A program made the translations under genes and the position numbers. The notes below the pieces were generated by a model. That model saw only the letters and a program-made list of their open reading frames with translations, did no database searches and was not told the DNA's origin. A stretch of DNA of 64,000 nt from Escherichia phage ECO71P1, in the sequence record OP172789; one strand, 5' to 3'. Positions 3,184 through 64,000 of this stretch are shown here, in pieces (the stretch's first letter is position 1; the number at the start of each line of letters is the position of its first letter).

Positions 3184-3389
3184 AGTGAGTCCTTCGGGCC
3201 GCAGTAGCGCCCGTCCAGGTAGCGGTCATATTGGATTAAGGCGAACGTTTTCAACGAAAGGTTACGGCGCTTAAACAGGTGACCCGTTGATGGATTCTGC
3301 TCGTGCGCCGTTGGATAAAGGCGTGACAGGTAGTGGATGAGGACTTGTAAAGCTCTACGTTGCTTTGTTATTCTCCCTTGTGTATTCAT
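3180..3389 (-). CDS. hypothetical protein
   Basis: 69 aa ORF, ATGA overlap with downstream gene. Confidence 0.3.
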   Translation of the reverse strand: MNTQGRITKQRRALQVLIHYLSRLYPTAHEQNPSTGHLFKRRNLSLKTFALIQYDRYLDGRYCGPKDSL

Positions 3390-3618: not shown

Positions 3619-4266
3619 TTATCCTGTGGCCTGCATATTGCGTACATACTTCTGCTCTAATGAATAGATGAAGTCGGCGACCGTCAATCCTTTGGTGTGC
3701 CACTCATACATTGTGTAGCCTGTATTCAGGAAATAGCCGCGCACCTTGTCCATTGCTTCAGATTCCTCCATGGAAGCCATCAGCGCGGCGACGTTATCAT
3801 AAGAAGGCACAAATCCCTTCTTGCGTAGCGCATTGCGCAAATCTTTAGTTCTGAATCCAATCTTGCACAGGTCATCACGGCCCGTTGAAGATGCAACCTT
3901 CGGCAGCGCAAGGAACTCTTTGAGGAACATTGAGATGTTCAAGTCGCCTGCGTCATCAAGCTTCTGGAGTCGGTTGCGACCGCGACCCTTGAATTCACTC
4001 GCACGAGGGTGAGCACCAAAGCAGTGCGCCCCTTCCAGTTTTGGGTCGATGATCATCAAATCTTTGCCTACGCGCAATTCAACATAGTAAAGGTATGTCT
4101 CATCGATAAGCTTCGTGCGCTTACAGTTGATGGAGTCCTTATCGTAACCAAAACCACGCAACACGGTTGAAATCATCCGGTTCATTTCTTCTCCGTGAAC
4201 GTCACTCTCTTTGTTCAGTTCACCAAGATGTTGAAAGAATTTAGCGATGTTGATTGCTTTATTCAT
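3619..4266 (-). CDS. hypothetical protein
   Basis: 215 aa ORF immediately upstream of the helicase gene, stop/start adjacent. Confidence 0.5.
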   Translation of the reverse strand: MNKAINIAKFFQHLGELNKESDVHGEEMNRMISTVLRGFGYDKDSINCKRTKLIDETYLYYVELRVGKDLMIIDPKLEGAHCFGAHPRASEFKGRGRNRLQKLDDAGDLNISMFLKEFLALPKVASSTGRDDLCKIGFRTKDLRNALRKKGFVPSYDNVAALMASMEESEAMDKVRGYFLNTGYTMYEWHTKGLTVADFIYSLEQKYVRNMQATG

Positions 4267-47845: not shown

Positions 47846-48107
47846 GATACGGATGATACGGATAAAATGAGGCGTATTTTTATCCGTATCGGTGTATAAG
47901 CCGCGCTATCACTGGTGTGCTACGGATGATACGGATGATACGGATACTTTTCATATATAAGAGTTTATAAAAAAATAAAATTAAATTAGATATATAATTT
48001 TAAATTAATTTATTTGAATTCCTATAAAGTATCGCGGCAACGCGTATCATCCGTATCATCCGTAAGATTCTTTTGAAAACAACTACTTACTTGATACGGA
48101 TGATACG
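47846..48107. repeat. iteron cluster: direct and inverted copies of TACGGATGATACG flanking an AT-rich core
   Basis: 47846-47863, 47921-47947 (triple), inverted copy 48043-48064, 48093-48107; AT-rich 47948-48030. Confidence 0.7.
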
Positions 48108-53274: not shown

Positions 53275-54735
53275 TTAAAGGTTAGAGAAGAAGCCGGATG
53301 CTGCAACAATTGGTTTCATCAATGCCATGATTGCTGCGTCCGCTTTGTTAGGCGATTTGACTCCACGCTTTGCCATATCCTTTTTCGATTCAACTTTGAA
53401 CTTGCCAAGTACAGACGTGTCTTTGCGCGGCGCTGACATTTCAAAAAGAAACGTCTCAATTTCTTCCGCAGACCAAGCAGGAATCCCAAGTTCTGGGATG
53501 CCGTCTGTGTCGATGGAAATCAACTCATCAGTCGGGTATACGGCCTGCCCTGTTGCATACTCATATGTCTTCCTGAATCGTTCGGCAATCTCAGTCCATT
53601 TTTGCGCTTTTATGTTTGCGAAATGGTCTTTATTGAGTATTTCAACGTGTGGTAACTCAAGGAAAACGTCATCAGGATCATCAACAGCACCTTGCGCGTT
53701 GAACGCATTAAATTCGATTCTTGGGAATGTTGGATTTTCATGGATTGCATACTCATTGAGCTCATCAAATTTTGAACCAGCAAATGCACCAACACCGATT
53801 GCGTCATAGGTAATTGATGCGCCGAATGTCAATGCGTCTTTCCAAACTCCGCTTGCGGACTTAAGCAATTCATCTTCCAGACCTTCCCATGTCTTGATGC
53901 CGCGCAATACGTTGCCCGTGACAAATGCTGTGGCGTTTAAGTCGTCGCCGTCGTCCGCCACGTCAAAGCCTATACGGTTAGACCCTGACAAGCTCCATCC
54001 CAGCGTAGGGTGTTTGTGGAGGTTTAGCGCGGCCTTGACGAATGCACGGTTAATGACCGACTTGTCGCCGCCTGTCTTCGGTACTCCGCCATAAACGTGC
54101 TCTGCCTTTTTCGGGTCGCGCTCATACATGCCAGCAATAACGTCCAGCATTGTTTGCGACAAGAATGGGTTGTCTTGCCAGTTGATCTTCTTAACGATGG
54201 CATTCTTCGGCGGTCGCATGACAAAGTTCTGGTAAACGAAATCGGCCTCTTCATCAGGGTTAAATATGATCCATATTTCGGACCCTTCCTTACGAATTGT
54301 CGGCTCAATAATGTCCCACTGCTCTTCAGTCAGTGCGTGCGCTTCCTCAAGCCAAAGAACATCAACGCCTTCGGTTGATTTGATTTCGTCAACGTTGCGT
54401 GCGATACCGTAAAATAAGAATTCAGATTTTGTTCTTTTATGCTCAATGGAGTTTTTTAATAAGTTGAACTCGTCTTTAAAATCAGAAATCTCTATCTTAT
54501 CTTTTAATAGCGTATATACTGATTCAGAAATCTTGTTCTGGAATTGTCGAACGCAAAGGAATTTTAATTTAAAGTTTGCCGCCAAATAAATAGCAAAACC
54601 AGCGGCATCATGCGATTTGGAAGATGCACGACCGCCGTATATAACTTTGTATCGCGCTTTCGTCTTCCAGACTTCTCTTAAAGCAGGATTCAACTGGTAC
54701 ATGACTTTCCAATTATGTGTTAATATTTTATTCAT
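53275..54735 (-). CDS. terminase large subunit
   Basis: N-terminal Walker A VIYGGRASSKS; 486 aa with C-terminal nuclease-like acidic residues. Confidence 0.75.
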   Translation of the reverse strand: MNKILTHNWKVMYQLNPALREVWKTKARYKVIYGGRASSKSHDAAGFAIYLAANFKLKFLCVRQFQNKISESVYTLLKDKIEISDFKDEFNLLKNSIEHKRTKSEFLFYGIARNVDEIKSTEGVDVLWLEEAHALTEEQWDIIEPTIRKEGSEIWIIFNPDEEADFVYQNFVMRPPKNAIVKKINWQDNPFLSQTMLDVIAGMYERDPKKAEHVYGGVPKTGGDKSVINRAFVKAALNLHKHPTLGWSLSGSNRIGFDVADDGDDLNATAFVTGNVLRGIKTWEGLEDELLKSASGVWKDALTFGASITYDAIGVGAFAGSKFDELNEYAIHENPTFPRIEFNAFNAQGAVDDPDDVFLELPHVEILNKDHFANIKAQKWTEIAERFRKTYEYATGQAVYPTDELISIDTDGIPELGIPAWSAEEIETFLFEMSAPRKDTSVLGKFKVESKKDMAKRGVKSPNKADAAIMALMKPIVAASGFFSNL

Positions 54736-59543: not shown

Positions 59544-59957
59544 ATGCCAAATAAAAATGATTCTATTCACAATACATATACTAAAGGCAGCGGAATGGCC
59601 TTTGGTGGCAGCATCAAAATTGACGCTCCTGGGATTCACATCCATAATGTTGATGCAAGTTCTGATGTAAGCAGTCGTGATTTGTCCTTGGTCCTCAAGA
59701 ATCAACTCGCTTTGGAATCGCGGTTGGATAGCATCGAGAAATCTCTCGAAAGTCTGCGCGACCAGCTTTATGGGCCTTGCCCCGTTGCGGATGAGTCTAA
59801 GACTGTTAATGTCAACTACGGTCTGATTGACAATATGCTTGGTGCTACATCACGCTCTGCCGTTAAGGCGTATAACATCGAGAATCTGATTGGGCAGATT
59901 TCTGATGGATTTGGCACATCTTGTGTTGCAGGTCGTGAAAGCGATTGTGGTGAGTAG
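59544..59957 (+). CDS. hypothetical protein (start trimmed to MPNKNDS)
   Basis: GAAGG RBS before internal ATG. Confidence 0.4.
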   Translation: MPNKNDSIHNTYTKGSGMAFGGSIKIDAPGIHIHNVDASSDVSSRDLSLVLKNQLALESRLDSIEKSLESLRDQLYGPCPVADESKTVNVNYGLIDNMLGATSRSAVKAYNIENLIGQISDGFGTSCVAGRESDCGE

Positions 59958-59988
59958 ATTTGATCGTTAGTCTTGGATAGTGAATCGT

Positions 59989-60015
59989 GGGTCGCTGTTG
60001 GCGGCCCTTTCTTTT
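59989..60015 (+). terminator. rho-independent terminator closing the plus-strand late unit
   Basis: GGGTCGC-TGTTG-GCGGCCC stem (one G-U pair) followed by TTTCTTTT. Confidence 0.5.
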
Positions 60016-60605
60016 GCCTGCCGCGCAGGAGTGTACTGAAAATTTACTGTGGGTACAAAATAGTACGGTACTGTCTGGGACTTTTTCTTTGAAAAGTTAG
60101 TGGACCAAATGTGTCGTATTTTGATTAGTGTACTGCAAATTTCATCAAGTACCAAAACGCACCAAAAGACCCATGCCCTAAAAACCACACGAACGCAATA
60201 ATCAATCGCCGTTACAGTTTCCAGCGTTACAATTCGAAAGAGAATGATTCGACGCATAATAACATGAAGCATAATGATTCAAAAGCGAATGATTGCGTGT
60301 AGGATAATATCGGTGGGGATTATTCTAGATGTCGGTAATTTCGCATGCGTACTATTTTCGGGCGAAGGGTCGGCATATTTCTCGTTTTAGTTCGGAACGA
60401 AGGGAAAGTTTTGCGCCTTTATAAAACAACGACTTACGCGACCCTCCCTAACGGTCCGATATAGGTGTCTATATAAAACAACGACTTACGCGATGTTCTC
60501 CATTTAACGTAATACCTGTTATGCGAACTAAGGCGCATCTAGACGAAGATTATGCGACGACGAAGGGAAGGATAAAGGAGTTTTCTCGTAGGAGCGCATC
60601 GAGAT

Positions 60606-60637
60606 AGGGACGAAGAAAAGCCGCGACTAAGCGCGGC
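60606..60637 (-). terminator. rho-independent terminator downstream of the 60658-60948 gene
   Basis: GCCGCG-ACTAA-GCGCGGC hairpin; TTTTCTT follows on minus strand. Confidence 0.5.
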
Positions 60638-60657
60638 CTATTAGTAACGGAAGGGTA

Positions 60658-60948
60658 TTATAAGGAGGCGATTTTAAAATAAGTTACTTCGCCGCCGAGT
60701 TGCGGTACAGCGATATATTCGCCGCCGATTTCGGTAATCGTATAGACGAAGCCGTTAATCGTTACGCGGTAGGATACTACGTCCTCGTCGCGATACTTGT
60801 AAAGGTCGAGGAAGTTGATCGGTTCATAAATAGACTCGATAGTTGCGTCTACGTTAGAGAGATAAACGCTCTCTAAAGTCTCGCCAAATACGTTAGAGTT
60901 TTCGGAAGTCTCGACGCGAGCGGAACGGATAGCGGCTAAAGTAATCAT
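60658..60948 (-). CDS. small acidic protein, island paralogue 1
   Basis: 96 aa; paralogous to 61758-62042 product; AGGAG RBS; CG-rich codon usage. Confidence 0.5.
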   Translation of the reverse strand: MITLAAIRSARVETSENSNVFGETLESVYLSNVDATIESIYEPINFLDLYKYRDEDVVSYRVTINGFVYTITEIGGEYIAVPQLGGEVTYFKIASL

Positions 60949-61054
60949 AATATTCTCCTAGTTAGTCGGGAGGGTAGCGACCTATTCGCTACCTCACCCC
61001 TCTCGATATAAATAAGTATAATCTTAGTGTACGGATAAGTAAAGCACTTTTTTT
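60949..61054 (-). promoter_or_regulatory. promoter-leader cassette copy 1 (TTTACT / TATACT sigma70-like boxes, leader stem-loop, anti-SD CTCCC)
   Basis: Aligns with copies at 61537-61618 and 61654-61757. Confidence 0.5.
60973..60993 (-). ncRNA. 5' leader stem-loop (transcript GGTAGCG-AATAGGT-CGCTACC)
   Basis: Covaries with 61713-61733 stem while loop AATAGGT is conserved. Confidence 0.45.
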
Positions 61055-61063
61055 CGTTTTTTT

Positions 61064-61216
61064 CTATTTATTTAAAGCGCGTCTTCCAAGTTCGACGACC
61101 CAAGCGGCGGCATCTTCCGCCTTATTAAATTCGTATAGATGCTTCTTATCTTCGAAGACGTAAAATAAAATACGTCCGAACTTATTAGCCTTCGCGCTTA
61201 ACTCGATAGTTTTCAT
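61064..61216 (-). CDS. small hypothetical protein (50 aa)
   Basis: Hand translation MKTIELSAKANKFGRILFYVFEDKKHLYEFNKAEDAAAWVVELGRRALNK; AAGGAG RBS. Confidence 0.3.
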   Translation of the reverse strand: MKTIELSAKANKFGRILFYVFEDKKHLYEFNKAEDAAAWVVELGRRALNK

Positions 61217-61233
61217 CTTCTACTCCTTTTTCG

Positions 61234-61536
61234 TTATTTTGCGATAAAATATTTATAAGCCTTATCGCCTTCTACGTCGATATACTCGACGATAATTAAC
61301 GCTTCGCCGCGCGGCGTAACCGACTCGATAAGGGTAACGGCTTCGTCGTCGGTCTTCGCGAAGCGGATGGCGCTACGTTCGGCGTACTTTATATCGTCGA
61401 AGGATAATCCGACGAAGGCGACGGCGCGCGCTTTAATAATTCCCTTTTCGAGTTCCGCGTTAACGGCGGCGATAAGAGAGCGAACGGTTAAGCGGTCTTC
61501 GTCGTAAGTAAGAATAGAAGAAATTAAAGTAGCCAT
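61234..61536 (-). CDS. small acidic hypothetical protein
   Basis: 100 aa; AGGAG RBS; leader shares cassette with the paralogue genes. Confidence 0.45.
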   Translation of the reverse strand: MATLISSILTYDEDRLTVRSLIAAVNAELEKGIIKARAVAFVGLSFDDIKYAERSAIRFAKTDDEAVTLIESVTPRGEALIIVEYIDVEGDKAYKYFIAK

Positions 61537-61618
61537 AATAAAACTCCTAATGCTAGTAAGGGAGAACGCCTCCCGTCTCGATATAAATAAGTATACGCGA
61601 GTGTACGAAGAAGTAAAG
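61537..61618 (-). promoter_or_regulatory. promoter-leader cassette copy 2 (drives the 61234-61536 gene)
   Basis: Imperfect inverted repeat with copy 3 around a 35-bp spacer. Confidence 0.45.
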
Positions 61619-61653
61619 AAAAAAGATAAAATAATTTATCGCATTTTTATCGA

Positions 61654-61757
61654 AAAAGTGCTTTACTTTTTTCTACACTATATTATAATGTACTCATATC
61701 GGGACGGGATGAGTTAACGAATAGGTCGTTAACGCCTCTCCCAACTAGGAGTTTAAA
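61654..61757 (+). promoter_or_regulatory. promoter-leader cassette copy 3 (TTTACT-N17-TATTATAAT, leader stem-loop, anti-SD, AGGAG)
   Basis: Strong -10 at 61681-61689; hairpin 61713-61733; SD 61747-61751. Confidence 0.5.
61713..61733 (+). ncRNA. 5' leader stem-loop (GTTAACG-AATAGGT-CGTTAAC)
   Basis: Compensatory stem changes relative to the 60973-60993 hairpin. Confidence 0.45.
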
Positions 61758-62042
61758 ATGGCTATTCTTAACGTTTCTTCTATCCGTAACGCTATCGTCG
61801 AGAACTACGGCGTAAAACAAAATTTATCCGAAGTCTACGCCGCGAACGTAGACCAAACTATCGAAGCGGGTGGGGTAACGGTCGCCGAGGCTTTTAAACT
61901 TTACGCGGCGTTACCGGAATCGGACCGCGAAGCCTTCGAAGTAAACGTTAACGGATACTTCTTCGAAGCGGTCGAAATCGGTAATATTTTACTCGTTATG
62001 GGCGAAGAAGAATTTGAGACCTTCTCCCTCGTCGAAGCGTAA
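61758..62042 (+). CDS. small acidic protein, island paralogue 2
   Basis: 94 aa; shared MxxLxxxSIRxAxVExxxxxxxLxxVYxxNVDxTIE pattern with paralogue 1. Confidence 0.5.
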   Translation: MAILNVSSIRNAIVENYGVKQNLSEVYAANVDQTIEAGGVTVAEAFKLYAALPESDREAFEVNVNGYFFEAVEIGNILLVMGEEEFETFSLVEA

Positions 62043-62122
62043 GAGAGGATTTTTAGAGCGTCGTGCGCGGCGCTTTAATAAAATTCTTTCGCGCCTAGCG
62101 CCCTAACAAATAGGAGTTTATT

Positions 62123-62749
62123 ATGGTTAGCTTAAATCGCTTCTCGACTAGCGGCGACGTTATCGCAACTAAGACCGCCGACCTCGTTGCATTCTATAAT
62201 GCAAATTCCGGCTCAAAACCGATTAAGAAGTTTGCGGACCGCCGGACCGCCGAGACTCGCGTAATCGCGTTAATCGAGTCCTTAAACGCGCTCGATGAGC
62301 CGTCCAACGAATCGCCCATCCCCGACGCGAAGCCGCGCGAGGAAGTGCCCAGCGATGTAAAAACGCATAAGGCGCGTGCGGTCGTTAAAAAGGCCGAGCC
62401 GACTCAGGAAGAACTCGACGCGATGACCGACGAAGAGTATGAAGCCTTCGTTAAAAGCGGCCTAAACGATAGTGCAAATTGCGTAGTGCAAAATGGAACT
62501 CCTTCTCATCGCCGTTCGAATAGCGAAGGTATTGCAAAAAGTTGGGATAACAAGGAAGTAGCGCAAAAGCGTCTCACCCGTAACGCCGTTATGGTCGAGG
62601 GTGTAGGAGAGTTCAAATCGGTCCGCGTAGCGTTCGCCGCGCTGGGCTTACCGGATAGCAAGCACATTCGCTTCCGTATGAAGCTCAAGGAAGCTGGGCG
62701 CTTGAACTTTGAGTTCGGCAACAAGTCCTACACCTTCCAGATCATCTAA
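62123..62749 (+). CDS. hypothetical protein (contains two in-frame copies of the TAGTGCAAA repeat)
   Basis: 208 aa; AGGAG RBS; CG-rich codon usage. Confidence 0.45.
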   Translation: MVSLNRFSTSGDVIATKTADLVAFYNANSGSKPIKKFADRRTAETRVIALIESLNALDEPSNESPIPDAKPREEVPSDVKTHKARAVVKKAEPTQEELDAMTDEEYEAFVKSGLNDSANCVVQNGTPSHRRSNSEGIAKSWDNKEVAQKRLTRNAVMVEGVGEFKSVRVAFAALGLPDSKHIRFRMKLKEAGRLNFEFGNKSYTFQII

Positions 62750-62755
62750 TCGAAT

Positions 62756-62778
62756 GGCGGCCCTTCGGGGTCGCTTTT
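62756..62778 (+). terminator. rho-independent terminator with UUCG tetraloop
   Basis: GCGGCCC-TTCG-GGGTCGC followed by TTTTC. Confidence 0.55.
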
Positions 62779-62799
62779 CATAGTGCAAATTGGTGGCTT

Positions 62800-63063
62800 A
62801 TGAATACGCTTATTCTCATCGCTACGTTGTCCATCGGAAGTGGTCGCACCTTATCCCTTTATGATCATAGTGCAAATTGCGCTTACCCAACGCGAGTTGC
62901 GGCGATAGTTAATAGTGCAAATCGAATGCTATTCGAGACTTGTTGGCGGGTTGATAACGAGAAAGGGCGCATCGTCTTAGGTTATAGTGCAAATCTGCTG
63001 GTGGAGTCGTTCGACTGGACGGCGGAAGGTCGTAAATTGTTACGTAAAGTGACTAAAAGATGA
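62800..63063 (+). CDS. questionable ORF spanning three repeat copies
   Basis: 87 aa ORF whose SAN tripeptides are encoded by the repeat; may be non-coding. Confidence 0.2.
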   Translation: MNTLILIATLSIGSGRTLSLYDHSANCAYPTRVAAIVNSANRMLFETCWRVDNEKGRIVLGYSANLLVESFDWTAEGRKLLRKVTKR

Positions 63064-63124
63064 CTTATAATAATACACTTTCTAACGCGTTTATGGTTGT
63101 AACCTTCCCCGTCGTATTACCGAT

Positions 63125-63165
63125 GGCCCTAGAAGTGGAGAAAATGTGTTCTAGGGCCGTTTTAT
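63125..63165. terminator. hairpin between converging transcription units
   Basis: GGCCCTAG ... CTAGGGCC 8-bp perfect stem, followed by GTTTTA. Confidence 0.4.
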
Positions 63166-63177
63166 AGTGCAAATTGG

Positions 63178-63650
63178 CTAGTGGCGGGAGAATTGCTCAC
63201 CCTCTTTGGCAGCCTCTCCAAAATCCTTGTAGAAATCGTCCATGGAACGGCCCATTTTACTATTGCCGTTTTCATCAATCATCGTGATGCCGTAGATGAT
63301 ATTCAGTTCACGAATGGCATTAAGCTTGGCTGAAGCCGCGACTTCTGGATCACGCACAAGCTTCACTAAATTGTGGATGGAACTCTTTACGCTCCACAAT
63401 TCCTTCAATGGCATCTCTTCCATACGCTTCTTGTAGCGCATCTTGTAGTACGGATTGCGTTGCGTGCACAGGATTCGCTGGCCAGTGTAGTTATCGGTCG
63501 CAACCTCCATGCCAAATACTAGTGCAAAAGCTGCGCGCATGTCATGGCCCTGAATAACAAGGTCAATGAACTCATCGAATAATGCCTGATTATGCTCTGC
63601 AAATCGTGGGTCTTCAAAGTCTTCAGGCATTGCTACATAATCTTGACTCA
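63178..63650 (-). CDS. hypothetical protein (start set to MSQDYVAMPEDF; start codon lies inside a repeat copy)
   Basis: ORF track extends via TTG through the repeat array; ATG start favoured. Confidence 0.4.
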
Positions 63651-64000
63651 TAGTGCAAATCCCATAGTGCAAATTAATAGTGTGAATTATACAATGATTG
63701 AACATTATATTCAAGTGCAGATTGATGTTCAAATTGGCTGTAAACGTACACAAATCATAGTGCTAAATGAATATCGGACCGTGGTGCGTGGTGTACTGTT
63801 TGATACGTATAAAAGAAATCCATCCCTTTCGCCGCTTGTTATGCAAATCAATGACTTAGCCGCTGCTGGCTGGTTGAAGCGTATCATGACGTATCATCCG
63901 TATTGCCGCAAGTCTTTGTTTTTACTTATATCTTACGGATAATACGTATAAATATAAGTTTAGTATAAGTATGAGGATGTAGAAAAAATTAATTTAAATT

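Follow-up and report, generated by a model that had tools for sequence, protein, structure and literature searches.

Phages T7 and T3 possess pac sites beside a terminal repeat, which is 160-230 bp long and does not contain genes. The cos site of phage lambda combines the nick site cosN with the terminase-binding repeats of cosB. In phage T5, the injection stop signal region occupies a large stretch of the left terminal repeat that is untranslated and rich in repeats (bioRxiv 10.1101/866236). For the Pbunavirus relatives of the myovirus studied here, circularly permuted genomes have been reported (PMC10913387, PMC12345254). The records of two other phages, Mansfield (MK903282) and MyoSmar (MN062189), provide PhageTerm coordinates only, with no motif, conservation pattern, or mechanism (PMC6753283, PMC6753285).

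We analyzed a stretch of 64,000 nucleotides from Escherichia phage ECO71P1 (OP172789), hereafter called the window, and studied the 700 bp between positions 59958 and 60657. The source phage belongs to the genus Wifcevirus, ~68-kb myophages of E. coli and Shigella. Our analysis makes it probable that this region is the junction between the unique genome and a direct terminal repeat (DTR) of ~3.8 kb, and that it holds the cut or nick site for one packaged end. The closest known kind of site is the terminus and packaging site of DTR phages of the T7/T3 type. The similarities to T7 and T3 comprise fixed, nonpermuted ends, a DTR, a defined end next to conserved elements just outside the repeat, and the presence of terminase genes. 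Unlike in T7 and T3, the Wifcevirus repeat is ~3.8 kb long and carries genes, including the one for the small terminase subunit (TerS), and the motif TTAGTGTAC-N24-CGCACCA at its boundary is unrelated in sequence. Like lambda cos, the locus places a cleavage point in noncoding DNA with repeated short elements that resemble protein-binding sites within 40-330 bp, but the ends are a long direct repeat instead of cohesive single strands, and the TerS gene is not adjacent but at a distance of 3 kb, at the opposite end of this repeat. A lambda-type cos site, which is defined by cohesive ends and no terminal repeat, was rejected, since relatives carry direct repeats of 3.5-3.9 kb. With T5, the locus has in common an untranslated segment of several hundred bp, conserved in relatives, that contains repeats in direct and inverted orientation and is located where a long terminal repeat with genes has its inner end. 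In contrast to T5, the region is devoid of DnaA boxes, the repeat lacks large genes of the A1/A2 type, and the repeat boundary itself is located in the region. Mansfield provides a homologous and MyoSmar an analogous position, and the DTR ends at the same CGCACCA.

The noncoding region and the boundary of the terminal repeat

The region is located between a gene on the + strand ending at 59957 and a gene on the - strand ending at 60658, and was left without gene annotation by most depositors. The orientation of the window is the reverse of that of the GenBank Wifcevirus records, 28 of which match the region at 90-97% identity. A sensitive blastn search with the 700 bp returned no DNA relatives outside this genus, and a search of IMG/VR added only one new genome to the GenBank records. 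Conservation and open reading frames (ORFs) were evaluated in an alignment of 22 Wifcevirus genomes. Eight ORFs of at least 30 aa are present in the region, none of which is intact in all 22 genomes. The window is the only sequence in which the longest one (101 aa, - strand) is intact, and single-base insertions and deletions are scattered over the region among the aligned genomes. Small-protein genes were ruled out, since no ORF is intact across all genomes, and the preliminary description of this DNA, which had reported no convincing ORF, was right in this respect: the region is noncoding. The five sequence features listed there are all present as well, with small errors in their coordinates. 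A search of the region for tRNA and tmRNA genes found nothing. Its GC content (0.43-0.47) resembles that of the rest of the genome, and an AT-rich stretch is absent.

Two convergent transcription units stop at intrinsic terminators that enclose the region, in agreement with the bounding terminators proposed before (59989-60015 and 60606-60637). The terminator on the + strand (59989-60017; stem 59989-60007 followed by a T-run) ends an operon consisting of the tail fibre gene and small genes. Its stem varies in relatives with compensating changes, and it is annotated in WFH and WFC. The terminator on the - strand (60608-60639; stem 60639-60618 followed by a T-run) belongs to the gene 60948-60658. 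Here, the stem is invariant in all 22 genomes, the terminator is annotated in Mansfield, WFH, and WFC, and the transcription that it stops heads for the DNA end.

Two side observations concern the edges of the region. The 3' end of the upstream gene (59930-59980) differs in the window from that of all 21 relatives, and near-identity begins abruptly with the terminator at ~59980. This pattern points to a breakpoint of recombination at the edge of the conserved noncoding block. On the other side, Ro157lw, ECML-117, FEC19, SP13, and F13 contain an extra 69-aa gene between the 96-aa gene and the noncoding region. It adjoins position ~60650 of the window, from which it is missing, and is annotated as 'transcriptional regulator' in F13. 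Its presence in some relatives indicates that genes are gained and lost in the DTR, whose length consequently ranges from 3.5 to 3.9 kb.

The DTR ends of Mansfield, WFH, Ro157lw, and SP13, which were deposited independently by different laboratories, all map between positions 60164 and 60165 of the window. The four phages finish their DTR with GGGCATGGGTCTTT, which is followed directly across the cut by TGGTGCG. The repeat of Mansfield (3,673 bp) was annotated as a feature by PhageTerm (PMC6753283). For WFH (3,701 bp), Ro157lw (3,533 bp), and SP13 (3,899 bp), we compared the two ends of records that hold both repeat copies. The deposited linear genomes of relatives carry a direct repeat of 3.5-3.9 kb at both ends, with 0 mismatches between the copies, and repeats of ~3.7 kb were reported for WFC and WFH by Korf et al. 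(PMC6563267).

In ECO71P1 itself, the boundary is placed by homology to relatives only. The inner boundary of the DTR (60164/60165) would represent one physical end of the virion DNA, which would start 5'-AAAGACCCATGCC on the + strand. Positions 59958-60164 are unique DNA just outside the repeat, and 60165-60657 are its innermost part, which also forms the first ~490 bp at one virion DNA end. The repeat (60165-64000 in the window) would reach ~64010, so that the other genome end would be located ~10 nt beyond the window. What the preliminary description called the 'island', downstream of the region, is this terminal repeat.

Two annotated boundaries deviate from this picture. The DTR of WFC (MK373777.1) ends 81 bp further out, between 60083 and 60084, and the annotated boundary of the Myosmarvirus MTx (MK618717.1) is located 14 nt further in than that of MyoSmar (between positions 646 and 647 of the MTx segment). 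Agreement on the cut to the single nucleotide is therefore not universal. The disagreement could be due to differences in method or to real variation. With some library types, the DTR calls made by PhageTerm can be wrong (PMC10913387).

Both terminase genes are encoded on the - strand. The TerS gene (63178-63753) is located inside the DTR near its other end; its product matches PDB entry 7UXE, 'Small terminase' (phmmer, E = 1.2e-32), and the gene is annotated as TerS in Mansfield. The gene for the large subunit, TerL (53275-54735), was recognized by the Pfam family Terminase_3 (E = 3e-37). Just outside the cut, 60033-60152 contains six GTAC sites, the densest cluster of this tetranucleotide in the window, where its average frequency is one per 561 bp; none of 300 random placements gave such a density. 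Neither this cluster nor the DTR boundary had been noticed in the preliminary description. A DNA hairpin at the cut site was also considered, but not found (z = +0.98).

A two-part motif at the cut and its occurrence in another genus

The module TTAGTGTAC-N24-CGCACCA (60125-60164, + strand) ends exactly at the cut. Both parts, TTAGTGTAC at 60125-60133 and CGCACCA at 60158-60164, are identical in all 22 Wifcevirus genomes; the 24-nt spacer between them occurs in six variants. A distal copy of the element AGTGTACTG(A/C)AAATTT is located at 60030-60045 on the + strand, 97 bp from the proximal copy (60127), to which it is identical in 18 of the 22 relatives. A degenerate variant of the same AGTGTAC-type element, TAGTGGACCAAAT (60099-60111, + strand), is less conserved and exists in six variants. 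Split TAGTG...CAAAT variants had been pointed out before, and they are indeed found as AGTGTACTGAAAATTT at 60030, TAGTGGACCAAAT at 60099, and TTAGTGTACTGCAAATTT at 60125.

In the whole window, AGTGTAC occurs at six sites, four of which are on the + strand between 60030 and 61600. Moreover, two σ70-like promoters (TTTACT-N16/17-TATACT) in the DTR (61002-61044 and 61578-61620, - strand) share an element of ~43 nt with GTACACT in the spacer. From the distribution of AGTGTAC and the GTACACT in these promoter spacers, one protein might recognize both the terminus elements and the promoters.

TerS homologues occur in other genera. For the Serratia phage MyoSmar, which belongs to a different genus (Myosmarvirus) and shares 17% nucleotide identity with ECML-117, a DTR of 3,559 bp was predicted by PhageTerm (PMC6753285). 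We rebuilt its boundary by joining the end of the record to its start. It consists of AGTGTACGTTTTG...TTAGTGTACGTGCCAATCCATTTTGTGTGAAATCGCACCA before and GCCC after the cut, and the corresponding sequences of the window are TTAGTGTACTGCAAATTTCATCAAGTACCAAAACGCACCA and AAAGACCC, respectively. Aligned on the annotated cuts, the two phages are 27% identical overall. The exact runs in register are the 9 nt of TTAGTGTAC at position -40 and the 7 nt CGCACCA at position -7, a result that was obtained in none of 5,000 shuffles if no offset was allowed. A second copy of AGTGTACGT is located outside the DTR end of MyoSmar, and a second AGTGTAC further out is common to both phages. Given MTx, in which the proximal AGTGTAC is mutated, we regard the sequence agreement between MyoSmar and Wifcevirus as strong but not perfect.

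A scan of IMG/VR for TTAGTGTAC-N24-CGCACCA recovered only Wifcevirus, MyoSmar, and two distinct chance matches in unrelated coding DNA. In Salmonella phage PCSE1, a more distant TerS relative whose ends are not mapped, the motif was absent from the first 7 kb, which were scanned. The papers that were found on Wifcevirus and Myosmarvirus phages give only repeat lengths and do not describe the motif. The two-part terminus motif appears to be undescribed; the DTR itself is already annotated in a relative.

Conserved and variable repeats and the other genome end

Pairwise diversity among the 22 genomes was 0.02-0.04 at 60000-60225 and 60350-60650, compared to 0.1-0.25 in the flanking genes. With the exception of a variable patch at 60225-60350, diversity in the region is 3- to 10-fold lower than in the genes next to it. 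Conservation across related genomes had been suggested as a check in the preliminary description, and on the 22 Wifcevirus genomes this noncoding DNA surpasses the genes that flank it. With respect to the repeats, this conservation applies to a pair of 22 bp inside a highly conserved block, but not to the AATGATT units, which are located in the variable patch.

The variable patch contains three copies of AATGATT and a 27-nt imperfect repeat with a spacing of 45 bp. The three AATGATT copies had been recognized before, but they start at 60243, 60273, and 60288, resulting in spacings of 30 and 15 bp instead of ~18 bp and in a span of 60243-60294 instead of 60250-60300. In 13 of 2,000 dinucleotide shuffles, any 7-mer was found three times within 60 bp, and over the whole window AATGATT is not enriched. 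Phage Bas100 (PQ850605.1) shows a clean 45-bp deletion (60232-60276), which corresponds to exactly one unit of the 45-bp-spaced repeat and takes out AATGATT copy 1 and most of copy 2. This deletion provides natural evidence that the AATGATT/27-nt units are not all essential.

The conserved block (60350-60650) harbors a pair of direct repeats of 22/25 nt on the + strand (60417-60441 and 60469-60493), which are 52 bp apart. Described initially as 21 bp long, this repeat is real and comprises 22 exact nucleotides, TATAAAACAACGACTTACGCGA, at 60420-60441 and 60472-60493, or 25 nt if one mismatch is allowed. By comparison, the longest exact repeat among 2,000 shuffles was 15 nt. No further copy of the 22-mer was found within the window at up to three mismatches. 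The 10-mer ACGAAGGGAA is present in two copies on the + strand (60397-60406 and 60560-60569), which individually constitute weak evidence. We also considered the repeats as genome-wide phage promoter motifs, and rejected this idea: the 22-mer, a 16-mer, and ACGAAGGGAA are confined to the region, and AATGATT shows no enrichment.

The 22-mer core may have a third copy, the inverted AAAACAAAGACTTGCG at 63907-63922 on the - strand, ~90 bp inside the other genome end. Five genomes have this copy in identical form, but it is made less convincing by a stray match at 48076. The latter, AAAACAACTACTTACT (48076-48091, + strand), matches the core with two mismatches in a coding region and is probably due to chance; altogether, the core has four matches versus 0.04 expected. 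Two further weak inverted matches relate the inner block to the other DTR end, namely ACGGTCCGATAT (60451-60462 and 63782-63771, - strand) and GTAC..ACGCACCA (63796-63782, - strand). All of these inverted matches are in the range obtained with shuffles or close to it, and the link that they would provide is suggestive only. A role as terminus does not account for three features, namely the 300-bp inner block, its 22-bp repeats, and the AATGATT units. MyoSmar has no counterpart of any of them, and no inverted matches above chance were found between the two end regions of its DTR.

The other DTR boundary is located outside the window and was therefore read in WFH. It is likewise found in noncoding DNA (~680 bp) with repeats of its own, four copies of ACGGATGATACG that flank the cut. 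Units similar to ACGGATGATACG are present in direct and inverted orientation, at 63890-63903 and ~63935-63948 of the window (both - strand) and at 1515-1537, 1646-1659, and 1692-1705 of the WFH segment. An AT-rich palindrome, AATTAATTTAAATTAATT, is located right at this genome end. A search for a cut-site sequence common to both DTR boundaries gave no convincing match; the best inverted one was the 22-mer core (z ~3.4, within shuffles).

About 90-100 bp outside the TerS-side boundary, we found a 21-nt element, TCTATGGTGCGCCGCGACTGGG, that is identical between WFH and MyoSmar, although the DNA is otherwise unalignable. It is located at 67478-67499 of the WFH record (1479-1500 of the WFH segment) and at ~3634-3656 (- strand) of the MyoSmar segment, which has a 92% copy at 3349-3372. 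The element is also present in other Wifcevirus, in Erwinia phage TropicalSun, and in the Serratia phages Spe5P4 and SMP. TCTATGGTGCGCCGCGACTGGG contains TGGTGCG, the reverse complement of CGCACCA. Read in the GenBank orientation, TGGTGCG is therefore found outside the repeat at either boundary, each time on the same strand. We regard TCTATGGTGCGCCGCGACTGGG as a likely site of packaging initiation.

The interior of the DTR contains 12 σ70-like promoters versus 5.6 ± 2.0 expected; the region 59958-60657 has none. Its proteins, the largest of which has 208 aa, gave no matches in Pfam, and their PHROG matches are only to families of unknown function. In MyoSmar, a strong σ70-like promoter (TTTACT-N17-TATAAT; 361-420 of the MyoSmar segment) reads inward from the equivalent terminal noncoding DNA. 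In Wifcevirus, by contrast, the adjacent gene reads outward to the DNA end and is stopped by the terminator. The Chi sequence of E. coli, GCTGGTGG, occurs five times in the window (6544, 19754, 28713, 51313, and 62997) versus 1.27 expected, and none of 100 shuffles reached five. One of the copies, at 62997 (+ strand), belongs to the terminal repeat. It is ~1 kb away from the TerS-side end and has the orientation in which RecBCD would read it upon entering from this end.

Possible functions of the region

Four other explanations were weighed against a genome terminus. The inner block (60350-60650) could be a replication origin, with the 22-bp repeats as iterons and the phage replication proteins starting synthesis near the end, which would be compatible with a terminus role of 60125-60165. 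This block is noncoding and strongly conserved, the exact 22-bp repeats are spaced by 52 bp, i.e., ~five helical turns, and the phage encodes a RepB-type primase (RepB_primase), a VapE-like helicase, and a DnaE-type polymerase (Pol III alpha). The primary origin of T7 is also located near a genome end. However, the repeat exists in two copies only, which are not in tandem, whereas iterons comprise at least three regularly spaced copies. Moreover, at a GC content of 0.43-0.47 there is no AT-rich unwinding stretch, DnaA boxes are missing from the region, the GC skew only tracks gene orientation, and MyoSmar does not have a counterpart. We therefore consider an origin rather unlikely. Even less probable in our view is an entry control as in T5, in which the repeat region would pause or organize DNA entry in such a way that the DTR genes are expressed first. 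The large untranslated, repeat-rich stretch 60165-60617 at the inner end of the DTR would suit such a function, and the abundance of σ70-like promoters in the DTR (12 versus 5.6 ± 2.0) fits an early region that is transcribed by the host. But the DnaA-box array is lacking, with no match to TTATCCACA at up to one mismatch in 59958-60657, the DTR proteins (at most 208 aa) match no family of known function, TerS, a late function, is located in the DTR, and no report was found that these phages use a two-step transfer, which in T5 depends on pre-early proteins.

The preliminary description had offered a small RNA locus as one of two candidate functions and had named a covariance-model search as a check. 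Noncoding transcripts made from the region would be in line with the conservation of noncoding DNA, and the segment 60360-60479 of the minus strand folds somewhat better than shuffles (z = -2.3 to -2.7, a marginal value). The search against Rfam, however, gave no match even at E ≤ 1, no σ70 promoter was found in the region at a standard or relaxed threshold, and the two terminators, which are those of the flanking genes, point inward, the wrong orientation for an internal transcript. Furthermore, 31 of 32 segments folded on the two strands were unremarkable (z near 0). The most frequent change among relatives, T>G at 60445, disrupts a base pair of the best fold without compensation, and this only candidate helix is lost in the majority of relatives. 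A small RNA is therefore very improbable; this reading is unsupported rather than disproved, as a divergence of 3-6% gives covariation little power. Finally, the region might be a functionless spacer, leftover DNA between convergent operons with repeats from slippage or duplication. The variability of the AATGATT patch, the loss of one 45-bp unit in Bas100, and the individual weakness of several short repeats would be expected in this case. But a region with a 3- to 10-fold lower diversity than its neighboring genes, and with core motifs that are invariant in 22 genomes and common to another genus at the DTR end, is hardly credible as such, and this explanation is already disfavored.

Taken together, this is a real, conserved, functional cis-acting region of a known kind. 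The second function offered initially, a protein-binding control region, pointed in the right direction, since a conserved cis-acting site with the DTR boundary at 60164/60165 was found. For the genome terminus that we favor, the following mechanism can be envisaged. The terminase, or a nuclease working with it, would recognize the two-part module and cut right after CGCACCA, with the other AGTGTAC element, at a distance of 97 bp, as a possible extra binding site. By analogy to T7, each concatemer junction would contain a single DTR copy, the duplication of which would start from staggered nicks at the two boundaries. In the packaged genome, 60165-60617 would form the outermost ~450 bp of one end, which are noncoding, and the terminator at 60639-60618 would halt early transcription before it reaches the DNA end. 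The 22-bp pair and the AATGATT units are probably candidate protein-binding sites for a function of this end, such as packaging, end protection, or DNA entry. As a tentative extension, the module and the 21-mer with TGGTGCG ~100 bp outside the other boundary might together constitute an undescribed, sequence-specific end-making signal common to Wifcevirus and Myosmarvirus, with the 300-bp inner block (the 22-bp repeats and their possible inverted counterparts near the other end) as a separate end-associated element, e.g., for end pairing, entry control, or replication start.

An unexplained repeat-rich gap would thereby turn into a defined landmark, a physical genome end with a candidate recognition signal for the cutting enzyme. 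The module would provide a concrete DNA substrate for studying a terminase with a solved structural relative (TerS of E217, PDB 7UXE), and with the two-part motif, the positions of DTR ends in this phage group may become predictable from the sequence alone. Exact ends are needed to assemble or reboot synthetic DTR genomes, which is relevant to Wifceviruses as phages under development for use as models and in therapy. Fixed-end packaging in Wifcevirus and Myosmarvirus would represent a feature of this lineage, as opposed to the circularly permuted Pbunavirus relatives. If the proposed end-making signal common to the two genera holds true, the evolutionary switch between headful and fixed-end packaging would be directly testable within the Lindbergviridae, whose best-known members, the Pbunaviruses, reportedly use headful packaging.
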